From Candidatus Methanomethylicia archaeon (GTDB lineage Archaea > Thermoproteota > Methanomethylicia > CALHIW01): 64,000 nucleotides of DNA. Below are positions 7,544 through 63,250 of this stretch, piece by piece. The notes beneath the pieces are model-generated. The model was not told the origin of the DNA and searched no databases. It saw nothing but the letters and a program-made list of their open reading frames with translations. The stretch is taken from NCBI GenBank assembly GCA_038845975.1, contig JAWBQF010000003.1, forward strand, positions 80,872 through 144,871, written 5' to 3'. The position numbers and the translations under genes are program-made. Numbering within the stretch: position 1 is the stretch's first letter; every line of letters starts with the position of its first letter.

Positions 7544-7872
7544 TAAAGCATATGATTAACTTTATATGATGGCTTCCTCAATCCTTCTAGTTTCTTCCTC
7601 TCAGCCACGTCTTATAAATTCCTCTATTTCACGTTTATTATATGGATTCCTACATGTATTCTCAAGAGTCTCATTTATTCAATATGCCAGCGAGGTCAAG
7701 GTAGACAAGAACTCCTCCTATAGAGCTGCTTAACTTTTAAACCTCCTAGAAGTACCCATATCGTTAAGAATTGTTAAGAGGCAGTTCTACTCATCAAGAA
7801 GCTTCACTTATATCGATCTATAAATTTTTCTATATCTAGTTGGATTGCTATATTATTGAATGATCTATTATT

Positions 7873-8097: not shown

Positions 8098-8174
8098 AAG
8101 ATTATCTAAAAATTAAGCTTATAAACCTCTAGTAGTTTTAACAATTCCCTAAATGATCCTATATTGTTAGTAAC

Positions 8175-8676
8175 ACTTTGTGAGCTTTAGCTTTATTTAA
8201 GTCTCCATTTACTTATGGTGAGGCTATGTCTAAAATTGTTAGGATTACTATGATTGATGATGCTATTACGAGTGTTAGTTCTAGGGTTAGGATTATGTAT
8301 ATTACTTGTTATTGAGGATATTATAGTATGATTTGATATTGTGAATACGTTTACATCTTTATTATTTATTAGGGAGGCTATTTATGGATCTAAAATAATT
8401 AGGTTAAGTGATATCTCAATATCATAGGGCTACATGTAAAATACTATAAGCATCAAATATATTTTACGAGGTCTAAATAGAGAGAATCATAAAGTTAAGA
8501 ATAAATAAGCTATTTGATAACTATATATGAGGGAAAACGCAATGATGAACAGCATTCATGCTTATGAAGTCAACTGCTTCATACTAAACAAACATGGATA
8601 AGGAAGATAAAAGCTAAGAATTCATAGAAACATAATACTAAAATAGAGAGAATCAAACATGCTTAAGTTCACAAAA
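8175..8676 (+). mobile_element. Highly degenerate IS6-family copy
   Basis: Aligns by eye with 16932 and 36988 copies (ctttagctttattt... to ...catgcttaagttcacaaa); internal deletions. Confidence 0.75.
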
Positions 8677-10855: not shown

Positions 10856-10974
10856 GTTTACATGACCTCGCCAAGTCAAGCATCCCGCCTTAATGTTAAT
10901 ACCTTAGATATCCTACTTAATAGGATGCTATTATTATGTGGAAATATTTAAATTAATCTACATGTTTCAATATT

Positions 10975-12018
10975 ATGCCTACTCCACCGTTTCTCGTTTC
11001 ATACTCTATTACTAGGAAATGTAATCTTAAATGTAAACATTGTTATAGTGATGCTACAGAGGAATTTGCATCAGATGAGCTATCCACAATGGAGGCAAAG
11101 AAGCTTCTAGACGATATTGTAAGTTTGGGTGTAAGGCTCCTAATCTTAGATGGAGGTGAGCCTCTCTGTAGGGATGACTTCTACGAGGTTGCTGGATATG
11201 CTTCAAGTAGAGGTATTAGAGTTGTTGTTGGAAGTAATGGAACACTTATAGATGAGAATACTGCTAGAAGAATGGTAAGTGTAGGTGTGGGGTGTGTAGC
11301 AATATCCCTAGATGGAGCTAATCCTGAAACCCATGACTCCTTTAGAGGTGAAAAAGACGCATTCAGTAAAGCTATTGAGGGGGTTAAGGCATGTAGGAAG
11401 GCTGGATTACCATTCCAGTTCAATATTGTAGCTAGGAAGCCTGTAATCGATGAGTTGCCCGATATTTTAAAGCTAGCTCTAAACTATGGAGCTGAAGCTA
11501 TTGAAATCTTCGATTTAATCCAGGTTTCAAGAGTTAAAAATAGATGTTACGATGAAGTTTTAAGCATAAATGAAAGGAGAAGAATAATGGAATGGCTTGC
11601 TGAAACACAGAGGAATTATCCAATCATAATTAGGACGCCTGCATGTCCAATGTATCCATTAATGCTTAAGGAGAGAAACATTCTTCCTAAATATTTCCCC
11701 CATCAAGCCCTAAGAAGAATACCATACTATGATCGTGGATGTGCTGCAGGAATGCCTAATGGCTACATAACCATACTTTCAAACGGAGATGTTATACCAT
11801 GCATGCTACTACAGGTTAAAATAGGTAATGTAAGGATGGAGAATATCGTTAAGATATGGAATGAATCACCTATACTTTCCACTCTTAGGGCAAGAGAAAA
11901 TCTACTTAAAGGTAGATGTGGTGAATGTAGATATAAGGGAATATGTGCTGGATGTCGTGGAAGAGCATTTGAAGAAACAGGAGACATTATGGCTGAAGAT
12001 CCTGGATGCTGGCTATAG
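10975..12018 (+). CDS. Radical SAM/SPASM protein (NirJ/Ahb-like)
   Basis: CNLKCKHC; GCAAG...GDVIPC; CGECRYKGICAGCRGRA...DPGC SPASM. Confidence 0.9.
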   Translation: MPTPPFLVSYSITRKCNLKCKHCYSDATEEFASDELSTMEAKKLLDDIVSLGVRLLILDGGEPLCRDDFYEVAGYASSRGIRVVVGSNGTLIDENTARRMVSVGVGCVAISLDGANPETHDSFRGEKDAFSKAIEGVKACRKAGLPFQFNIVARKPVIDELPDILKLALNYGAEAIEIFDLIQVSRVKNRCYDEVLSINERRRIMEWLAETQRNYPIIIRTPACPMYPLMLKERNILPKYFPHQALRRIPYYDRGCAAGMPNGYITILSNGDVIPCMLLQVKIGNVRMENIVKIWNESPILSTLRARENLLKGRCGECRYKGICAGCRGRAFEETGDIMAEDPGCWL

Positions 12019-12179
12019 AATGTTTAAATAGCTATATGTTCTTGTATTCTAGTGAATGATAGCCTACTTATAGTAACTTAATCTACGTGGTGCTATTATA
12101 AGTCTGATGAGAAACCAGTCAATTAATTTATAATAGTAGGTAAAGACTGAAATACATCATTCATAGGAGACAAACATAG

Positions 12180-14315: not shown

Positions 14316-14418
14316 ATCATGTGAACACTAATAAAGTATATCTATCAATATTTCAATAAATCCATTTTGGAAATGACTAAGGTAATTGTAGATTATAACA
14401 CTTATTACATAACAAGCA

Positions 14419-15008
14419 TCTTATGAACTTTAGCTTTATTTAAGTTTTTCACTTTATTCATGGTGAAGCTATAGCTAAAGCTATTAGGTTTACTAGGAAG
14501 AGTTTCATTCATATTGGTTGTTTATAATGCTTATATATTTGTTATCTAGAAATGACTTATTATAGAGTTATACATCCATATCGTCCTAGTTCATCTTAAG
14601 TTTTCTATTTGAGCTTGATAAGAGGAATATTAGAATTAATAGTTAATGATACTACTACTAGATTCTAGAGTGAAGTTGTATGCTATCTTAGTCTCTATCA
14701 AGAAAGGTGTTCACACAAGTTTGTGAGTTTAACTGATGGAGCACTATAGAGAAACATACAGAATACTAAACTTAAAGCATGAAGTATATAGTTTAGAGAT
14801 TAGAAACCTAATGAGGCAAGTCATACAGTATGTTAAAGATAGAACTAGGCTATTTGGTAATTATTGAAGAGAAATGTGATGGTGAGCATAAATATGTATC
14901 CATGAAGTTAATAGTGTGACTAAACGAAACATTGATTAATGAGAAGATAAAATGGGAATTCATGGAAACAATATCAAAAATGATTAAATATGTTTAGATT
15001 CATAACCT
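14419..15008 (+). mobile_element. Degenerate IS6-family copy between sufC and sufB
   Basis: Left end gaactttagctttattt and internal aaagatagaactaggctattt match other copies. Confidence 0.7.
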
Positions 15009-16269: not shown

Positions 16270-17665
16270 TCTATATCTTGCTTAGAGCTCTTCTTAATGT
16301 TTCCCTGTATAGTGGTGTTTTGCCAAGCATGCTTTCTTCCTAAACGATCTCTAGGTCCAGCTTCGCCTTACCATAATCTAAAGGTACTCCACCCTTATAA
16401 GCATATTATTTTCCACTAAGATATCCTCAATCTTAGCCATATTTCTTGTTATTTTTCCCATTATGTTATCTAAATCCTCAATAAGCTTCCACATAAGATC
16501 ACATAGCCACTTAACATAATGCTTCACTCTATCTAACCCTATAGCTCTAACAATATCGTCTATAGCAATAAGAATGTATCTATCTCTAAGATTCTTTCTA
16601 AAAGCTTTCTCAGCAATTCTATCGATAATTAGCGAAATAGGTCTTAATAATGCATGACCAAGCAGAGTATTTTGCTGGAGGAGATCCATGATGCTTCTAA
16701 ACCAATTTTGGAAATATCAATTAGCATAGATGATGTTAAAGACTTCCTAACATCTTTATCCTCAAGAGCATCAATATATACTACTACACCATCCATAAAG
16801 AAATCATTAAACCTCCTAACAAACTCTCTTAAAAGCCTAGTTTTACCACATCTCTCAGGACCATATATGTGGAAAGATATAGTTCTAAATCGACTACAAT
16901 ACTCATTTAAAGCTTTAAGCTCTCCAATTCTGGCTTTGTTAACTTTAGCTTTATTTGGGTCTTCCTTATTTATGGTGATGGTATGTCTAAAGTTGTTAGG
17001 TTTTGTTAGGAAGAGAACTCTATTTACTCTAGTTGTTTACCAATTATATATTCGTTCATCTAGGATGGCTTTAGATATCCTACTTTATTGTTGTTAGGAG
17101 TTATGTATCTATATTATAATGGTTTAGATCTTTAAGCTTCCTATTCAAATTTGGTAGGAGGGTTAGAATTTTATAGTTGATGATACTATTATAAGTTAGG
17201 CTCTATGAGGAAGATTGTTTATGTTGCTTTTAAGCCATTATTAAGAAAAATTCTATATGTATGGGTTTGTGATGTTACAAGTATGCTTACATCACTAACA
17301 TTAAAAGATTAGAGCTATCTATGGTTCTAATATAATTGTATTAAGTGATGGTGTTCATTATTATAAGGCATCATGTAGAATATTGAATTTAAAGCATAAT
17401 AAAGTATTTAAAAGTTAGAATTAGTGGAGGGAATTATACAATACATTAGGATAGATAAACTATCAATAATTAATACCGTGTATGAAGGATAAGTGTGATG
17501 GTGAACATGTATTAATTCTTATGAAGTCAATAGTATAGCTAAACGAACATGGATTAATAAGAAGATAAAAGCTAAGAATTCTAGAAACACAATACCAAAA
17601 TAGAGGTAATAAAATGTTTAAGTTAACAAAGCCCTAATTCTATCAATAAATCTTATATTCTCCAT
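16270..17665 (-). pseudogene. Archaeal AAA-type ATPase pseudogene interrupted by IS6
   Basis: Removing the IS gives MENIRFIDRIGELKALNEYCSRFRTISFHIYGPERCGKTRLL (Walker A); after a frameshift ILIAIDD (Walker B). Confidence 0.8.
16932..17633 (+). mobile_element. IS6-family element, frameshifted transposase
   Basis: TIR ggctttgttaactt / aagttaacaaagcc; 8-bp TSD ccaattct/ctaattct. Confidence 0.9.
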
Positions 17666-17830
17666 TACTCATCCTAATTAAAGCATGATATAGTATTGAT
17701 AAACTAAATATTTTCCTCAATGAAGACATTAACCCCAATATGAAGTATGGGAACATCATATATTTAAATATCTTCTAAATCATAAACCCTCATTTTTTAA
17801 ATATAGACTTTGCAACTCTAAGTTAAAATA

Positions 17831-17921
17831 GAACTCATCTGAAAACTCTTTAGATGTTGTTAAGACTTAATTAAGTTAATAATTTAACTATAAATTAATT
17901 ATGGAGTTTTCAGGCAGACTC
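17831..17921. mobile_element. Putative ~90-bp MITE
   Basis: Inverted ends gaactcatctgaaaactc / gagttttcaggcagactc; an identical 20-bp end recurs inverted at 49974-49993. Confidence 0.5.
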
Positions 17922-18466
17922 ATAAAGTATACTAAAACCTATTTAAGCTCTCTAGAAACCCTATTGAAAAGGCTTTAAATAGCCTCTAAAACTGCTCATA
18001 TCAGAAATATGATTCTAATACAAAACGTACTAATTATGGAAGATTAAAATACATAGGGTAGACATAATCTCTCTTTTAATATTTGAATAGTTTATACATC
18101 TTATAATCTACAACCATCTATCCCTATGATTACTATAGCGATTAGTAGATACTGTAAGAAGTATACGGCTAGCTCACTAATCTATTTACATGAACTCTTA
18201 AATATTGAGGAGACTGCTAATAACTTTCCATCTGTATTATGAGGAGCTTCTTCTCTACTACATTACTATTACGTGTACTCTAGACCTAGCAGCTTAGGAA
18301 GGAAGCTATAGTAAATAAGTTACATGCCGAACTTCTACAATACATTTATAGTTCTTCAATATAGTGTAGCTGTCTACATATCCCATAGATTGATTTGTAA
18401 GCTGGAGTTTTAATAGTTTCATTATTCATGTTATCATATCAGGTATATTTTCCATGTTTGTAATAC

Positions 18467-18477
18467 AAATATTTATA
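18467..18477 (+). promoter_or_regulatory. Putative BRE/TATA box for the structured RNA
   Basis: aaatatttata, with TTTATA ending ~24 nt before 18501-18502. Confidence 0.5.
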
Positions 18478-18500
18478 GGGAGTAAGCTACTTATACTATT

Positions 18501-18661
18501 TGGGTGTGAGCAAGCTTAAGCCAGATAACTGGCTAAGCTTAACAGTTTACCTTAAGATTATGGGTTTGAAGGATCTATGGGAAACCATAGATTCTAGAAC
18601 TCAGTCTTAAGGTAGATTGTTAAGATTTAGTTAAGTATTTGGCTTAGGCTTAGAACACCCA
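18501..18661 (+). ncRNA. Candidate novel structured ncRNA (rod / four-way junction, GAAA tetraloop)
   Basis: 7-bp closing stem; 19-bp + 6-bp + 11-bp central helix capped by GAAA; helix mismatches are G-U; upstream TATA. Confidence 0.6.
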
Positions 18662-18667
18662 CTAATT

Positions 18668-19855
18668 CTATAATTTATGATGGATTGAATGTGTAAATGT
18701 TATGGTTGTATTAGTGAATGGGCAGAGTGGATCAGCTTCGAAAATGTTTCCTGTAAGTAGATATGCTCTTGATCTACATCCTCCACAGTTTTCTCTATGA
18801 ATACATGATTTACATGGTTTCTCCAGATTTTCCCTATTACGTAGCTTAGCTAGTATCCTATTTCCCCTCCATATTTTTATAGCAGGCTCCTTAATTATGT
18901 TTCCAATACCTATCTGTAGGAAGACACAGGGCCATACTTCACCATACCATTTAACGTAGAACATTCCTCTTCCAGCTATACATCCATGAAATAGCTTGCT
19001 ATCTATTTTCCTAGATAGATATGCAAAGTATTCAGGTAAACCTATAGGAACTACTAAGGCGTTAAGGTTTCTCTGTATGCTTACTGTTGTTTGGATTACT
19101 TTTAGGATTTCATTTTTACTTAGCATTTCACTATTTATGTTTAAACCTCTACCGAATGGTTGGAATTGGTAGAGAAGTATTACATGTGCTCCAAGTCTAT
19201 CTGCTAGGTATAGTAGGCTTGGAAGCTCGTGAAGATTTAGTTTTGAAACGGTAATGTTAACCTGTAGGTAAAGTTTCTCTTTCAAGCTGTTTTTAATACC
19301 CTCCATCGTCTTAATCCATGTTCCAGGTACTCCTCTAAAGTAGTCGTGGAGTTGTGGCTCAATAAAATCTAAACTTACAGCAACACCAGCAACCCCCTTC
19401 TTGGAGAGTTCTTTAGCTATGTTCTCGGATATTAGGGTTCCATTAGTTGCTATTACTGTTTCGAAACCGTAGCTTCTAGTATAGTCTATTATTTCAATTA
19501 TGTTATTATTCATTAATGGATCCCCCCCAGTTAAAACAAGCATTTTAAACTCAGGTACTGTAGCTATTGAATCTATCATTTTAAATATGTTTTCTAGAGG
19601 TGGATCCATTTTTACTTCTCCTCCCCTCACCTCGCAATGTATACATTTCATATTGCACCTATTTGTAATCTCCAATACTGGATGCGGGGGATAGCCGAAG
19701 CATCCAGCTCCATATGCTCCAGCAGCAACTTTAAACAGTTTGTTTAGAGAGAGTATCCATCTACTCATCCTCCATCCAGTAGCTCTTCTAAAAGTTAGAG
19801 CAGTAGATATCTGTTTAAAGCTGAGAGCTAGCTCAGATAGATTGTGGAGACGCAT
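18668..19855 (-). CDS. Radical SAM/SPASM protein
   Basis: CNMKCIHC; GCIAGRG...EVWPC; CKSCIHRENCGGCRSRA...DPLC. Confidence 0.9.
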   Translation of the reverse strand: MRLHNLSELALSFKQISTALTFRRATGWRMSRWILSLNKLFKVAAGAYGAGCFGYPPHPVLEITNRCNMKCIHCEVRGGEVKMDPPLENIFKMIDSIATVPEFKMLVLTGGDPLMNNNIIEIIDYTRSYGFETVIATNGTLISENIAKELSKKGVAGVAVSLDFIEPQLHDYFRGVPGTWIKTMEGIKNSLKEKLYLQVNITVSKLNLHELPSLLYLADRLGAHVILLYQFQPFGRGLNINSEMLSKNEILKVIQTTVSIQRNLNALVVPIGLPEYFAYLSRKIDSKLFHGCIAGRGMFYVKWYGEVWPCVFLQIGIGNIIKEPAIKIWRGNRILAKLRNRENLEKPCKSCIHRENCGGCRSRAYLLTGNIFEADPLCPFTNTTITFTHSIHHKL

Positions 19856-19856
19856 T

Positions 19857-20774
19857 TCAGCACCCTACAATATATCCTAGAGATAGGAGAAGAGATGCTG
19901 AAATGAATAGTATAAGTGTTCCACTCATAGCCGGTATAAGTCTTCTAGAATTTACATACTCCCTACTTAAAATCATACAGTTCCTAATAGCTAACGGTAT
20001 TGTAGCTAGTACGATTAGACTTGCTGAAGGCATAACTCTACAGGTAACACCTACCATTACGATTAAATATGTTAAGCCTACTAGGAGGTAATAGATGTAT
20101 TTTGCTCTCTCCCTTCCAATCCTAACAACTAGGTTTAGCTTCCCAGCTTTTCTATCAGCTTCATAGTCTGGGAACTCATTAATCCATATAACTAGGGTTA
20201 TGAGAATACCTGGTATAAGTGAGGAAATTATTACCTCCCTTAATAGTAGGCTTAACGTCTGTACATAGAAGCTTCCTAATACTATTAATGGACCGTAAGA
20301 TAACCCTATGAGAAACTCTCCAATCCCTCTATAAGCCCACATAAACGGAGGAGTACAATATAAAGCTCCAGTAAATATGCCTAGAAGCATCAAGACCAAT
20401 ACTGGGAAGCCACAAATCAAGGTTAAATATAAGCCTATAGCTATAGCAGCCATATAGAAAATAAAGCCAGCCTTAAATACTGTTTTAGGATTTAAAAGCC
20501 CTAATGGAAGCATACGGCTACCAGCATTAAATGGAGTAATGTCTTTTTCATCAACAATAATATCCACTCCACTTCTCCAGTCAAAGTACTCGTTAAATGT
20601 ATAGCATCCAGCCATAGCTAAAGAAACCCCGAGAAAAGTTAGGAGGAAAACATGTATGTTAAGGACTTTATAGTAGTAGTATGCTAAGCAGGTCCCTAAA
20701 ATTATTGATGGAATACCTGCAAGGAAAAACTTAACCCTAACTACATTAATCCATGGCTTAACATAACCAGACAT
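19857..20774 (-). CDS. menA: UbiA-family prenyltransferase, MenA-like
   Basis: NEYFDWRSGVD and INEFPDYEADRKAGK motifs; multiple TM. Confidence 0.8.
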   Translation of the reverse strand: MSGYVKPWINVVRVKFFLAGIPSIILGTCLAYYYYKVLNIHVFLLTFLGVSLAMAGCYTFNEYFDWRSGVDIIVDEKDITPFNAGSRMLPLGLLNPKTVFKAGFIFYMAAIAIGLYLTLICGFPVLVLMLLGIFTGALYCTPPFMWAYRGIGEFLIGLSYGPLIVLGSFYVQTLSLLLREVIISSLIPGILITLVIWINEFPDYEADRKAGKLNLVVRIGRERAKYIYYLLVGLTYLIVMVGVTCRVMPSASLIVLATIPLAIRNCMILSREYVNSRRLIPAMSGTLILFISASLLLSLGYIVGC

Positions 20775-26489: not shown

Positions 26490-26563
26490 CGGGCCCGGTG
26501 GGACTTGAACCCACGACCATCGGCTCCGAAGGCCGACGCGCTTCCATACTACGCCACGGGCCC
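26490..26563 (-). tRNA. tRNA-Arg (anticodon UCG), intronless, no encoded CCA
   Basis: GGGCCCG acceptor stem, TCGGC-CT TCG GA-GCCGA anticodon arm, GTGGG-TTCAAGT-CCCAC T arm; upstream gaaaagatataaa promoter. Confidence 0.97.
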
Positions 26564-34340: not shown

Positions 34341-35375
34341 TTAAGTTAATTGTTGTCCACAGTTTGGACAGAATTTTGCTCCGGGAGTTATCTGTACACC
34401 GCATTTAGGGCATTTCCCGGATTGTAGCGGTATACCACAGCCTGCACAGAATCTTGCATTTAGTGGATTTATGAAGTTGCATTTAGGGCACTGTAATCCT
34501 CCAGCTACTATTTGGGAGCCACAGTTCATACAGAACTTTGCACCTGAAGGATTCATGAAGCCGCATTTAGGGCATGGTTGCTGTGTTAATGGTTGCTGTG
34601 TGGATGGCTGCATCATCATTGGAAGTATCATTCCAACCCCTATCCCCGCTCCTGCACCTGCCCCTGGTGCTTGCGAGACTGCCTTAGCGCTTTCCTTAAC
34701 AGTCTCCATTCTAAGCATGTCAGCTGCACTTACTCCTGTTCTTAGGTAGAATATTCTATCTCTCCATTCAGGCTCAGTATCTATGCCTTCAAACTTAACA
34801 TCAATAAGTTCAAGTCCAATTCTTCTGAAATCCTCTTGGAGAGTGTTTTTTGCTAGAAAGCTTGTTTCATCAAGCTTTCCATATACTTGTGCTAGGTTAT
34901 ACTGGCTTAAGGCATCAATAATTTTCTCATTAAAGTATCCTCTTAGAAATTCCTGAAGCTGAGATGTTGTATAGATGTTTTGCCCTCCAACAACTTCTTG
35001 AACAAATAGATTTGGCTCCTCAACTCTAAACCAGAAGGAGCCGAAGAACTTTATCGGTGCAAGCTCTATTGTCTGTCCTTTCGCTCCGAATTTTCCTTGA
35101 AGCTGTTTAAGTGAGATAAATATTACTGATGCTTTAAATGGAATCTTATCGAAGCCGGAAATCCTTGAAAGTATGCCTGTTATTAATGGTAGGTTTGCTG
35201 TTGTTAATACATGTCTACCAGCTCTGAAAACATCATATACTTTCCCATCCCTAAAAAATACTGCTGCTTGATGCTCCTCAACTATTAATACATCACCCCA
35301 AGATATTTCATCGCTTGGATACCTCCATACAACATCATCTCCTCTATATCCTATCCACTGTATGACTTTAGGCAT
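34341..35375 (-). CDS. SPFH (band-7) domain protein with C-terminal zinc ribbons (YdjI-like)
   Basis: LIVEEHQAAVFFRDG...GRHVLTTANLP; GAGAGAGIGVG linker; three CPKC...FCxxCG repeats. Confidence 0.9.
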   Translation of the reverse strand: MPKVIQWIGYRGDDVVWRYPSDEISWGDVLIVEEHQAAVFFRDGKVYDVFRAGRHVLTTANLPLITGILSRISGFDKIPFKASVIFISLKQLQGKFGAKGQTIELAPIKFFGSFWFRVEEPNLFVQEVVGGQNIYTTSQLQEFLRGYFNEKIIDALSQYNLAQVYGKLDETSFLAKNTLQEDFRRIGLELIDVKFEGIDTEPEWRDRIFYLRTGVSAADMLRMETVKESAKAVSQAPGAGAGAGIGVGMILPMMMQPSTQQPLTQQPCPKCGFMNPSGAKFCMNCGSQIVAGGLQCPKCNFINPLNARFCAGCGIPLQSGKCPKCGVQITPGAKFCPNCGQQLT

Positions 35376-36897: not shown

Positions 36898-36987
36898 TTA
36901 CTCACCCAAATTTAACATAAAGCATTCACCAAATCCAGTATAACCTATCTCCTCTAAGCTGTATTTAAACTTTTACTAGATCTATTA

Positions 36988-37699
36988 GGCTTTGTTAACT
37001 TTAGATTTATTTGGGAGTTCCCTCCCCTATTTATGGTGTGTTTATGGTTAAAGTTGTTAGGTTTTAGGGAGAGAACTCCATTTACTCTAGTTGTTTATGG
37101 TGCTTACATATATTTTCGTTCTTCTAGAATGGCTTCGGATATTTTAAGCTTCATTATTGTTAGGAGTTATGTATCTATATTATCGTGGTTTATCTTAATC
37201 TTCTATTGATGGGAGGGATGTTAGATTTTATGGTTGATGATACTATTATTAGTGTAGGTTCTAAGAGTAAGGTTGTTTATGTTGCATTTGAGCCATTATT
37301 AAGAAGGATTCTATATGTATGGTTTGTGATGCTGCAAACATACTTACATCTCTAGCATTCCTTAGAAAATTAGAGCTATTTACGGTTCTAATATAGTTTA
37401 TTAAGTGATGGAGCTCAATACTATAAGCATCATGTAGAATATTAAAATTAAAACATGAATTGTATAGTTTAGAGGTTAGAATAATGGAGGGAATAATACA
37501 ATATATTAAGGATAGAACTAGATTATTCGATAACTACATACCATGCATGAAGGATAAATGCGATAATGAGCATTAATGCTTATGAAGTCAATAGCATACA
37601 TACTAAACAAACATGGATAAGGAAAATAAAAGCTAAGAATTCATAGAAAACATAATACCAAAAATAGAGGTGATAAAACATGCTTAAGTTAACAAAGCC
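36988..37699 (+). mobile_element. IS6-family element, frameshifted
   Basis: TIR ggctttgttaactt; perfect 8-bp TSD atctatta; VDDTIISVGSKSKVVYVAFEPLLRRI remnant. Confidence 0.92.
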
Positions 37700-38395
37700 A
37701 TCTATTAGTATAAAATTTTGAAAAGCCCCATCTTTGGGTTATTGGATATGGATGATATGAGAAAACTTTAATTGAGCTATATACAAGAGCCTTGCAGAAT
37801 CTTGTATAAGGAGTAAATAGAGGAGCAGAGTGGAAAATCTTGAAAGACTTAAACCGTAAGGAGGAGACATAGATGCTACTGAAGTATATCAGTTCAAGCG
37901 GATCACGCATGGTACTCAGCTAGCCTACATAGTATAGGAATATGCTGAGATCGCAGCTTATTCAGCCCTGAAACGGAATCGTTGAGGCTTTCAAGCAACA
38001 CGGAAACCAAATAAAATGTAAACATCTATCATATCTCCGTATGATGTTGAATGTTTGTATGATCTGAGATACCCTTTCCGCAAATATGAGCTAATCGCTG
38101 AGGAGAAGTTAAACCATACATAAACCAAGGAATCTAAATGAAGGATAGGGCTATGAATATGGAAAACATGGTATTTCATAGGGTGAATTCACATATATTC
38201 GATTGCTTTTACAAGCTACATTGGAAGTTTAAAGCAGAATGATATTTGCTTAAAAGCTTGTGGGAGAGTGATTGAAGTAGGATGAACAAGCCGTAAAGCA
38301 GATATCTTATCAAAATCATTTACTATAACTTATATGGACAACTAGGAGGCTAAATTATATTTATTAGAGCATGTTTAATTATATTGGGTTAAATC

Positions 38396-62131: not shown

Positions 62132-62489
62132 ATACTTTAAGCTAACCTAGTGATTTATTACTATTAAAATAGATATCTTAAACTTTCCTTCATGGTTCCA
62201 AATTGAAAGTATCTATGAAAACTAGCTAGATTTCTCCTTTACTTATTTAACCTAATTCTCTTAGGGGTTACGGAGGCCTCAACATCTTTCTTCTTAATAA
62301 GCTACATAGATACTTTAAGATGTTTATCTTCACATCATAATAACCTATATTTAAGGTTTTTATTCTTTCCTAGAGAGAAGCTTATGCCTTAGAGTTAAGT
62401 ATTTCTTATTATATAGCCTAATAATGTGTAAAGTTAAGCTCTAAATTCTATGTGTTTACTGCATACTAACTTGACAGTATCATTTATAT

Positions 62490-63195
62490 GGCTTTGTTAA
62501 CTTAAGCATGTTTTATCACCTCTATTTTTGGTATTGTATCTTCTATGAATTCTTAGCTTTTATTTTCCTGTTAATCCATATTTGTTCAGTATGTATGCTA
62601 TTGACTTCATAAGCATTAATACATGTTCACTGTCACATCTATCCTTCATGCATGGTATGTAGTTATCGAATAGCTTAGTTCTATCCTTAATTCTAACTTC
62701 TAAACTATACAATTCATGTTTTAATTTTAATATTCTCATGATGCTTTATAATAATGAGCTCCATCACTTAATACAACTATATTTGAACCATAAGTAGTTT
62801 TAATCTTTTAAGGAATGTTAGTGATGTAAGTATGTTGCAGCATCGCAAACCCATACATATAGAATTCTTCTTAATAATGGCTCAAACGCAACATAAACAA
62901 TCTTACTCTTAGAACCTACACTAATAATAGTATCATCAACCATAACAATCCTAACATCCCTCCTATCAAAATCAAATAGGAAGCTTAAAGATCTAAACCA
63001 CGATAATATAGATACATAACCTAAAATAATGAAGCTTAAAATATCTGAAGCCATCCTAGAAGAGCGAAAATATATGTAAGCACCATAACAACTAAAGTAA
63101 ATGGAGTTCTCTCCTAACAAACTTAACAAATTTAACCATATTAACACCATAAATAAGGGAGAGAACTCCCAAATAAATCTAAAGTTAACAAAGCC
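62490..63195 (-). mobile_element. IS6-family element, frameshifted
   Basis: TIRs; perfect 8-bp TSD atttatat; ORF 62818-63150 VMVDDTIISVGSKSKIVYVAFEP. Confidence 0.92.
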
Positions 63196-63250
63196 ATTTA
63201 TATTTACGAAATGTTTATTAAGGTTTTATTTATTTCTGATTGGTGGATTT

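Follow-up and report, generated by a model that had tools for sequence, protein, structure and literature searches.

A single-copy long hairpin downstream of sufBD in hot-spring archaea: a candidate small RNA gene with a promoter-like block

The locus and its genes

The window is the whole stretch of 64,000 nucleotides of archaeal DNA (Candidatus Methanomethylicia) that was analysed, and positions refer to it unless another contig or locus is named. At 18501–18661 the + strand forms a near-perfect long hairpin, folded by RNAfold into a rod of 70 pairs at −93.8 kcal/mol. The order of genes around it is the same in all three distinct loci compared, namely the window and two metagenome loci, L081 and L076: sufC/sufBD, on the same strand as the hairpin, is followed by the hairpin itself and then by convergent genes. 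The three archaea are related, come from hot springs and all keep the hairpin at this syntenic place behind sufBD. It begins 219 nt past the sufBD stop in L076, 395 nt past it in L081 and 2235 nt past it in the window, where an opposite-strand PF01637 ATPase pseudogene and two MITEs lie in between. The pseudogene (16378–16931, − strand) is a frameshifted “ATPase domain predominantly from Archaea” in two ORF pieces, and its 5′ end abuts a repeat of ≈700 bp.

On the downstream side, the convergent radical SAM gene ends in a TAG stop at 18668–70. A previous reading of the DNA, made from its letters and here called the sequence-only reading, had put the hairpin 7 nt from this gene; the gap is 6 nt, and such closeness is seen in the window only. 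The nearest convergent gene stops ≈720–730 nt short of the hairpin in both L076 and L081, and in L081 the radical SAM gene is ≈2.7 kb away, with another ORF between. Conservation therefore does not extend to a function as antisense RNA or terminator for the radical SAM gene, and we have abandoned the antisense role that the sequence-only reading had put forward. The intervening ORF of L081 (L081:5288–7147, 619 aa, no Pfam match) is absent from the window and from L076. L076 and L081 also share a non-coding block of ≈160 nt (L076:5643–5798; L081 ≈7670–7828; 79.5% identical) between the hairpin and the convergent genes. This block has no counterpart in the present genome and could be a second small gene, lost here. 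In the RNA run X17, which consists of contigs rather than reads, a single 223-nt contig matched at 18681–18900, inside the radical SAM gene; none lay on the hairpin, which with contigs weighs neither way.

Fold and stability of the hairpin

The predicted structure comprises the following elements:

18501–18507 with 18655–18661, + strand: outer (terminal) stem, from RNAfold
GAGC 18508–18511 / AGA 18652–18654, + strand: purine-rich 4 × 3 internal loop above the terminal stem, from RNAfold, conserved
After the 4 × 3 loop, + strand: 16-bp stem, then a 2 × 2 internal loop, from RNAfold
18530–18558 with 18604–18633, + strand: long helix, interrupted only by a bulged A18625
Apical part, + strand: helices of 7 bp and then 11 bp with a GAAA cap, from RNAfold
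18581–18584, + strand: GNRA tetraloop, GAAA in the window and L081, GGAA in L076
18502–18660, + strand: predicted mature hairpin RNA of ≈159 nt, GGGUGU to ACACCC, 66–70 pairs with small internal loops

In the window sequence the rod is made up of 38 A–U, 21 G–C and 11 G–U pairs, and only ≈21 of the 161 bases are unpaired. The outer pairing of TGGGTGT with ACACCCA and the sequence itself are as the sequence-only reading described them, and its count of about 11 G–U pairs was exact. Its helix lengths of 19, 6 and 11 bp were approximately right (RNAfold gives the long helix, 7 bp and 11 bp). Its claim that there were no A–C pairs missed a single C·A opposition in the 2 × 2 internal loop (18529/18634), so that 11 G–U pairs stand against one A·C.

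In the 4 × 3 loop at the foot, the AGA side is invariant in all three sequences, and the first loop base is G in two of them and A in L076. A K-turn was rejected on inspection, because this loop lacks a 3-nt bulge, although purines do oppose each other in tandem. No bulge-helix-bulge motif (two opposite 3-nt bulges with a 4-bp helix between them) was seen on inspection of the fold, foot included, the loops being 4 × 3, 2 × 2, a 2-nt bulge, 2 × 1 and a 1-nt bulge. The foot also holds two 29-nt local palindromes, nearly invariant, with inverted repeats of 12–13 bp that are ≈109 bp apart from centre to centre. The earlier suggestion that the element can switch between the rod and a four-way junction held up in part: both folds are possible, the junction being available in all three homologues, but the switch is not favoured by energy, since the junction is 11–18 kcal/mol less stable than the rod. 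At this cost the four-way junction would be at most a co-transcriptional intermediate.

Over the 195-nt stretch at 18467–18661, the + strand folds at −97.2 kcal/mol (z = −13.9, with none of 200 shuffles as good) and the − strand at −61.6 kcal/mol (z = −7.65), a comparison of both strands that the sequence-only reading had proposed. The predicted fold persists at 80 °C, with ≈−25 kcal/mol. The G+C content of the hairpin homologues is 0.38–0.46, compared with 0.59–0.71 for this genome’s tRNAs, an unusually low value for a structural RNA from a hot-spring organism.

A scan for inverted repeats by dynamic programming over the whole 2.77-Mb genome gave 2626 clusters, among which the hairpin ranks third by score. 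When the 12 top clusters were folded, the hairpin was the lowest in energy and the only one with a strong strand asymmetry (11 versus 1 G–U). Three of the other top clusters (C1:89583, C55:9238 and C23:10531) contain sequence from the MITE families described below, without comparable strand asymmetry.

Homologues and strand preference

By blastn, the hairpin had just three matches of 20–31 nt (E 0.0016–0.009) in 60 relatives, and none in 61 other genomes of the class or in 400 genomes of the phylum. The covariance model R1 had no match in the 61 class genomes. Phage and plasmid collections gave no blastn match, and two exact hairpin patterns gave none in a viral contig collection. No such hairpin follows the radical SAM/SPASM orthologues of 60–65% identity in named genome bins, and a genome of the same genus (G001, 62% complete) had no sufBD match, so that its locus was not assessable.

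The homologues come from a scan of metagenome contigs with the radical SAM protein, which yielded 57 loci. The hairpin search covered the best 16 of these (L073–L088); the remaining 41 have radical SAM relatives at ≤34% identity only. L073 and L074 equal the window over 240 of 240 bases. Diverged homologues are found in L081 and L076, loci of 39% G+C with radical SAM proteins 85% and 84% identical to that of the window; their hairpins are 84% (L081) and 78% (L076) identical to the window and 92% identical to each other. This last figure means that there are effectively two lineages, with most compensatory events on one branch. Model R1 confirmed L073, L074, L081 and L076 and no others among the 23 loci searched. 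The contigs of L075, L077 and L078, relatives at 82–85%, stop short of the place where the hairpin would be expected.

The same rod is formed on the + strand by all three distinct sequences, with energies of −93.8 (window), −91.3 and −99.9 kcal/mol. The corresponding − strand energies, in the same order, are −58.8, −72.4 and −86.5 kcal/mol, so that the + strand is favoured by 13–35 kcal/mol in every case. A coding reading was rejected: the + strand ORF in the hairpin has 16 aa here, another length in L081 and another frame in L076.

This strand preference bears on the idea that the hairpin acts on the − strand as a terminator or 3′-UTR hairpin of the convergent radical SAM gene, or as a bidirectional terminator between convergent operons. 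The hairpin foot lies right beside the radical SAM stop in the window, and the − strand can still fold at −59 to −87 kcal/mol. However, the + strand is preferred in all three homologues, both in energy and by the excess of G–U over A·C, the nearest convergent gene is some 720–730 nt away in L076 and L081, and the orthologues at 60–65% identity do without a hairpin. Archaeal termination relies on oligo-T tracts, not on long hairpins. A terminator role is, in our estimate, very unlikely.

Selection on pairing

A consensus structure of 66 pairs was drawn from the three distinct sequences (window, L081 and L076), with standard pairs in 96% of cells. Between the window and L081 there are 23 substitutions in paired columns, 21 of which are transitions, and 64 of the 66 pairs are still standard. 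Simulated random substitutions gave a mean of 54.6–55.0 and a maximum of 63 for this comparison, and none of 20,000 simulations reached 64. Between the window and L076, 62 pairs are kept, against a simulated maximum of 61. Six of the 66 pairs are altered on both sides (mean of 3.0 in shuffled data, with 8 of 500 shuffles reaching 6), and control alignments in which the partners were slid by 1–3 columns gave 0–2 double changes. One consensus pair is A–U, G–U and G–C across the three sequences. The hairpin is under selection for pairing, and the two diverged homologues keep the rod through changes by way of G–U pairs and through the kind of compensatory change that the sequence-only reading had proposed to look for.

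Conservation of sequence peaks at the foot, in the two stems (terminal and 16-bp), the purine-rich loop and the local palindromes, and again at the tip, in the apical 10 bp. Between foot and tip the rod is variable, and it is here that the compensatory changes lie. On the consensus pairs, G–U and A·C occur at ratios of 10:1, 6:1 and 5:2 in the three homologues, the excess being modest in the relatives (6:1 and 5:2); three of the G–U pairs are common to all three sequences.

A sister strain was present in run X12, from hot-spring DNA. One of its contigs spans 18448–19900 with 35 differences and an upstream contig has 18 differences in 527 nt, giving a flank divergence of ≈2.7–3.4%. Among the differences listed, there is a jump from 18496 to 18697, with none listed within the hairpin, where ≈4–5 would be expected at the flank rate. 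In the same run, the segment 18354–18464 is split into contigs of 61–93 nt with raised depth, and a single contig runs without a break through the hairpin beyond it. Such fragmentation is commonly seen where strains that differ at single bases occur together.

A hairpin formed in single-stranded DNA would leave the same traces of selection for pairing. The element might thus operate at the DNA level in replication, recombination or regulation: single-stranded or supercoiled DNA could adopt the hairpin or a cruciform, or the palindrome could offer a DNA-binding protein a pair of sites resembling operators. Compensatory change and transition bias show that a hairpin is selected but not in which molecule, G·T wobbles are tolerated in DNA hairpins, and the G+C content is low for the RNA of a thermophile. 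The two local inverted repeats at the foot, nearly invariant and widely spaced, point the same way, and the 29-nt palindromes could equally be operator-like sites on double-stranded DNA. However, a DNA element would have no use for the BRE/TATA block described below, which is conserved and has the right orientation and spacing, and the retention of a GNRA loop despite its varying N would be left unexplained. The adjoining ATPase pseudogene belongs to PF01637 and not to Orc1/Cdc6, for which reason a replication origin was also rejected; no integrase or replication gene lies beside the hairpin in the three loci, and there was no match in the phage, plasmid and viral collections. We consider a DNA-level element unlikely. 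Were it correct, an archaeal chromosome would here have conserved a cruciform site, which would be unusual.

Promoter-like block and boundaries

Two conserved blocks precede the hairpin:

18413–18446, strand unassigned: second conserved upstream block, “U1”, 34 nt (alignment A3, columns 84–117, in all three loci)
18460–18482, + strand: BRE/TATA promoter block, nearly invariant in all three loci, with variable spacers on both sides

The TATA box, TTTATA at 18472–77, ends 24 nt before 18501, in agreement with the approximate figure of the sequence-only reading. In all three homologues TTTATA starts exactly 30 nt upstream of GGGTGT, and the spacer between the TATA block and the hairpin is variable in sequence and gap-free in the alignment. 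Among the 16 tRNA genes identified by ARAGORN in this genome, 11 have a TATA-like hexamer starting −31 to −26 from the mature 5′ end. A loose TATA-like motif at that spacing is found at 8.6% of random positions, and an exact TTTATA starting −32 to −28 at 0.5%. The purine-rich ACAAAY upstream of the TATA box fits what we take to be the BRE consensus for rightward transcription, and the other side of the box does not.

U1 is located 56–89 nt before the predicted RNA start and is separated from the TATA block by a variable spacer. A site for a regulator is one possible role, and the start (5′ end) of a divergent transcript is another. On its − strand, U1 reads as an ATG and a few similar codons, after which the ORFs diverge (27, 11 and 14 aa in the three loci).

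The end motifs of the hairpin, GGGTGT and ACACCC, are conserved, while the positions that flank them, 18501 and 18661, vary, and conservation is abruptly lost straight after ACACCC. There is no conserved oligo-T terminator 3′ of the hairpin in the three loci, and the predicted 3′ end of the RNA is for that reason placed by the conservation boundary alone. Taken with the pairing in the homologues, the BRE/TATA block and this 3′ boundary favour the main suggestion of the sequence-only reading, that of an unannotated, structured + strand RNA with its own TATA box.

Alternatively, the hairpin could belong to the sufCBD operon transcript, as its processed 3′ end or as an element that stabilises it; it would then be a 3′-UTR-derived RNA and not an independent gene. 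In all three loci it does follow sufBD on the same strand, and it does so close behind the stop in L076 and L081 (219 and 395 nt). In the window, however, the hairpin is 2235 nt from sufBD, behind an opposite-strand pseudogene and two MITEs, and yet it is intact, with no change among the strain differences listed within it and with a conserved TATA block of its own. A processed suf 3′ end fits the relatives but not the window, and we regard it as improbable.

Copy number and mobile DNA

The region is rich in mobile DNA, the principal elements being:

16931–17636: MITE-like repeat of ≈700 bp with terminal inverted repeats and no long ORF
36966–37704 and 62485–63217 (the latter inverted): further copies of the ≈700-bp repeat
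Near 8174–8675, 14417–14805, 49523 and 51717: partial copies of the ≈700-bp repeat
17832–17925: palindromic MITE of 94 nt

Where ends of the ≈700-bp family meet head to head, they form inverted repeats that rank among the largest of this genome. The 94-nt MITE has 37 further blastn matches in the genome and a depth of ≈935 in run X12, compared with 12–20, and it is cleanly skipped in the contig of the X12 sister strain, leaving an empty site with the ends AA..AA. Based on the empty site, the number of matches and the raised depth, this MITE looks recently mobile. Both MITEs are 600–1500 nt from the hairpin, within the same intergenic region.

The hairpin itself is single copy, with one full-length place in the 2.77-Mb genome by blastn. 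The other 20 blastn matches are 14–44 nt long, with E from 0.03 to 9.3, as is the case for short chance matches. We rejected target pairing with one of these, an 18-nt exact match at C3:7984–8001 (E 0.03), which was taken as chance because it lies in non-coding DNA and involves the variable part of the hairpin. A search of both strands of the genome with covariance model R1 had the hairpin locus as its sole match. No direct repeat or target-site duplication flanks 18501–18661, and no empty site was found: the hairpin is present in the X12 sister strain, L073, L074, L081 and L076.

These data speak to the possibility that the hairpin derives from a palindromic MITE or PATE/REP-like element, as a relic or in domesticated form, and has no independent function. 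Its size and palindromic form do resemble those of MITEs, and it sits among mobile DNA, with the 700-bp and 94-nt MITEs and a broken gene within 1.6 kb. The real MITEs of this genome, however, are multicopy, one of them with an empty site, whereas the hairpin is single copy by both blastn and covariance model, has no target-site duplication, and occupies the same syntenic site in three species with its pairing kept far beyond neutral expectation. A relic without function is highly doubtful, and the IS200/IS605 PATE/REP-like element offered as the second choice of the sequence-only reading does not agree with a single-copy element that is syntenic in three species and has no empty site. The Correia elements of Neisseria are palindromic MITEs that are transcribed as hairpins. 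The present hairpin is like them in being a palindrome of ≈100–160 bp that would give a long hairpin if transcribed, but it differs in its single copy, its synteny in three species, its lack of target duplication and its own conserved promoter block. An integron attC site was likewise rejected: neither a cassette array nor an integrase was present in the loci examined. Words like RYYYAAC and GTTRRRY do occur in the hairpin, as expected in TTAAG-rich sequence.

Comparison with known RNA families

Rfam 15 was searched over the whole window at gathering thresholds, giving one match only, a tRNA at 26490–26563; ARAGORN also found one tRNA in the window. When the range 16900–18900 was searched at E up to 10, there were nine matches, none of which reached its gathering score on the hairpin. 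The best match on the hairpin was to MIR7993, with 30.2 bits against a gathering score of 100. The expectation that the element belongs to no Rfam family was borne out at gathering scores. The sole Rfam models that scored on the hairpin were plant microRNA precursors (MIR7993, MIR9555 and MIR2599). They share the long near-perfect hairpin, but scores of 23–30 bits against gathering scores of 100–120 are so far under threshold that we ascribe the match to generic hairpin likeness.

Bacterial 6S RNA is a long, mostly double-stranded rod of ≈160–185 nt with its own promoter, which acts by protein binding and not by base-pairing. The hairpin is similar in being a small rod, predicted to be an RNA with its own promoter and presumably bound by protein, but it lacks the large central bubble, its largest internal loop being the 4 × 3 loop at the foot. 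It had no match to the 6S model (RF00013) even at E up to 10, and we know of no 6S RNA in archaea. With SRP RNA (archaeal model RF01857) and the bacterial 4.5S hairpin it shares the rod, the GNRA-type apical tetraloop and small conserved internal loops. Unlike these, it has no match to the archaeal SRP model, and a canonical SRP RNA is encoded on a different contig of this genome (C50:8470–8787, 129.8 bits). By analogy, the hairpin would resemble the rod-shaped protein-binding RNAs (6S and SRP/4.5S) most, while having the defining features of neither.

To our knowledge, no archaeal RNA class consists of a single, nearly perfect duplex of 70 bp, and the titles and abstract openings of the literature searched revealed no archaeal RNA of such build. 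We would place the hairpin in a new family of RNA, though one of a general type that is already known.

A proposed small RNA gene

The hairpin is probably a single-copy, undescribed small RNA gene with its own promoter and a predicted + strand RNA of ≈159 nt. Transcription of the + strand would be started by the BRE/TATA block (TTTATA at 18472–77) at approximately G18502. The mature RNA would end near C18660 after trimming, and its 5′ GGGUGU would pair with the 3′ ACACCC, closing a blunt-ended, heat-stable rod. Such an RNA would most likely bind protein as a scaffold or decoy, the protein recognising its shape and sequence, instead of base-pairing with mRNA. We favour recognition by protein over antisense action because so few bases are free and because the helices, the purine-rich loop and the tetraloop are preserved. 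Protein binding, the most likely mode, would still be the weakest step in the proposal. The action as a + strand RNA, the RNA ends and the mode of action are inferred.

In a more specific version, the predicted RNA would be an archaeal decoy like bacterial 6S RNA or adenoviral VA RNA. It would be abundant and stable to heat, and by imitating a nucleic-acid duplex it would sequester a protein that binds nucleic acids. The sequestered protein could be a chromatin protein, a transcription factor or a nuclease. This analogy is tentative, and we think it unlikely to hold. A role as a precursor of small guide RNAs would lack known machinery in this genome (93% complete), in which Piwi and RNase III domains were not found.

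Few archaeal non-coding RNAs are understood beyond the translation, processing and CRISPR machinery. Where a long double-stranded RNA appears to be under selection and neither RNase III nor Argonaute is found, the question arises of what recognises it. Being short and single copy, with a predicted start and end and a covariance model (R1) for searches, the hairpin offers a clean test case.

Other features of the window

A radical SAM/SPASM paralogue with 38% identity is located on the + strand at 10963–12036 (G000:C3:91834–92907). It has one TAG and one TAA inside the match and is probably a pseudogene. At 34357–34575 there are three direct copies of a 57-nt unit, spaced by 78–84 nt and 61–74% identical, which probably represent a repeated protein motif inside a gene.
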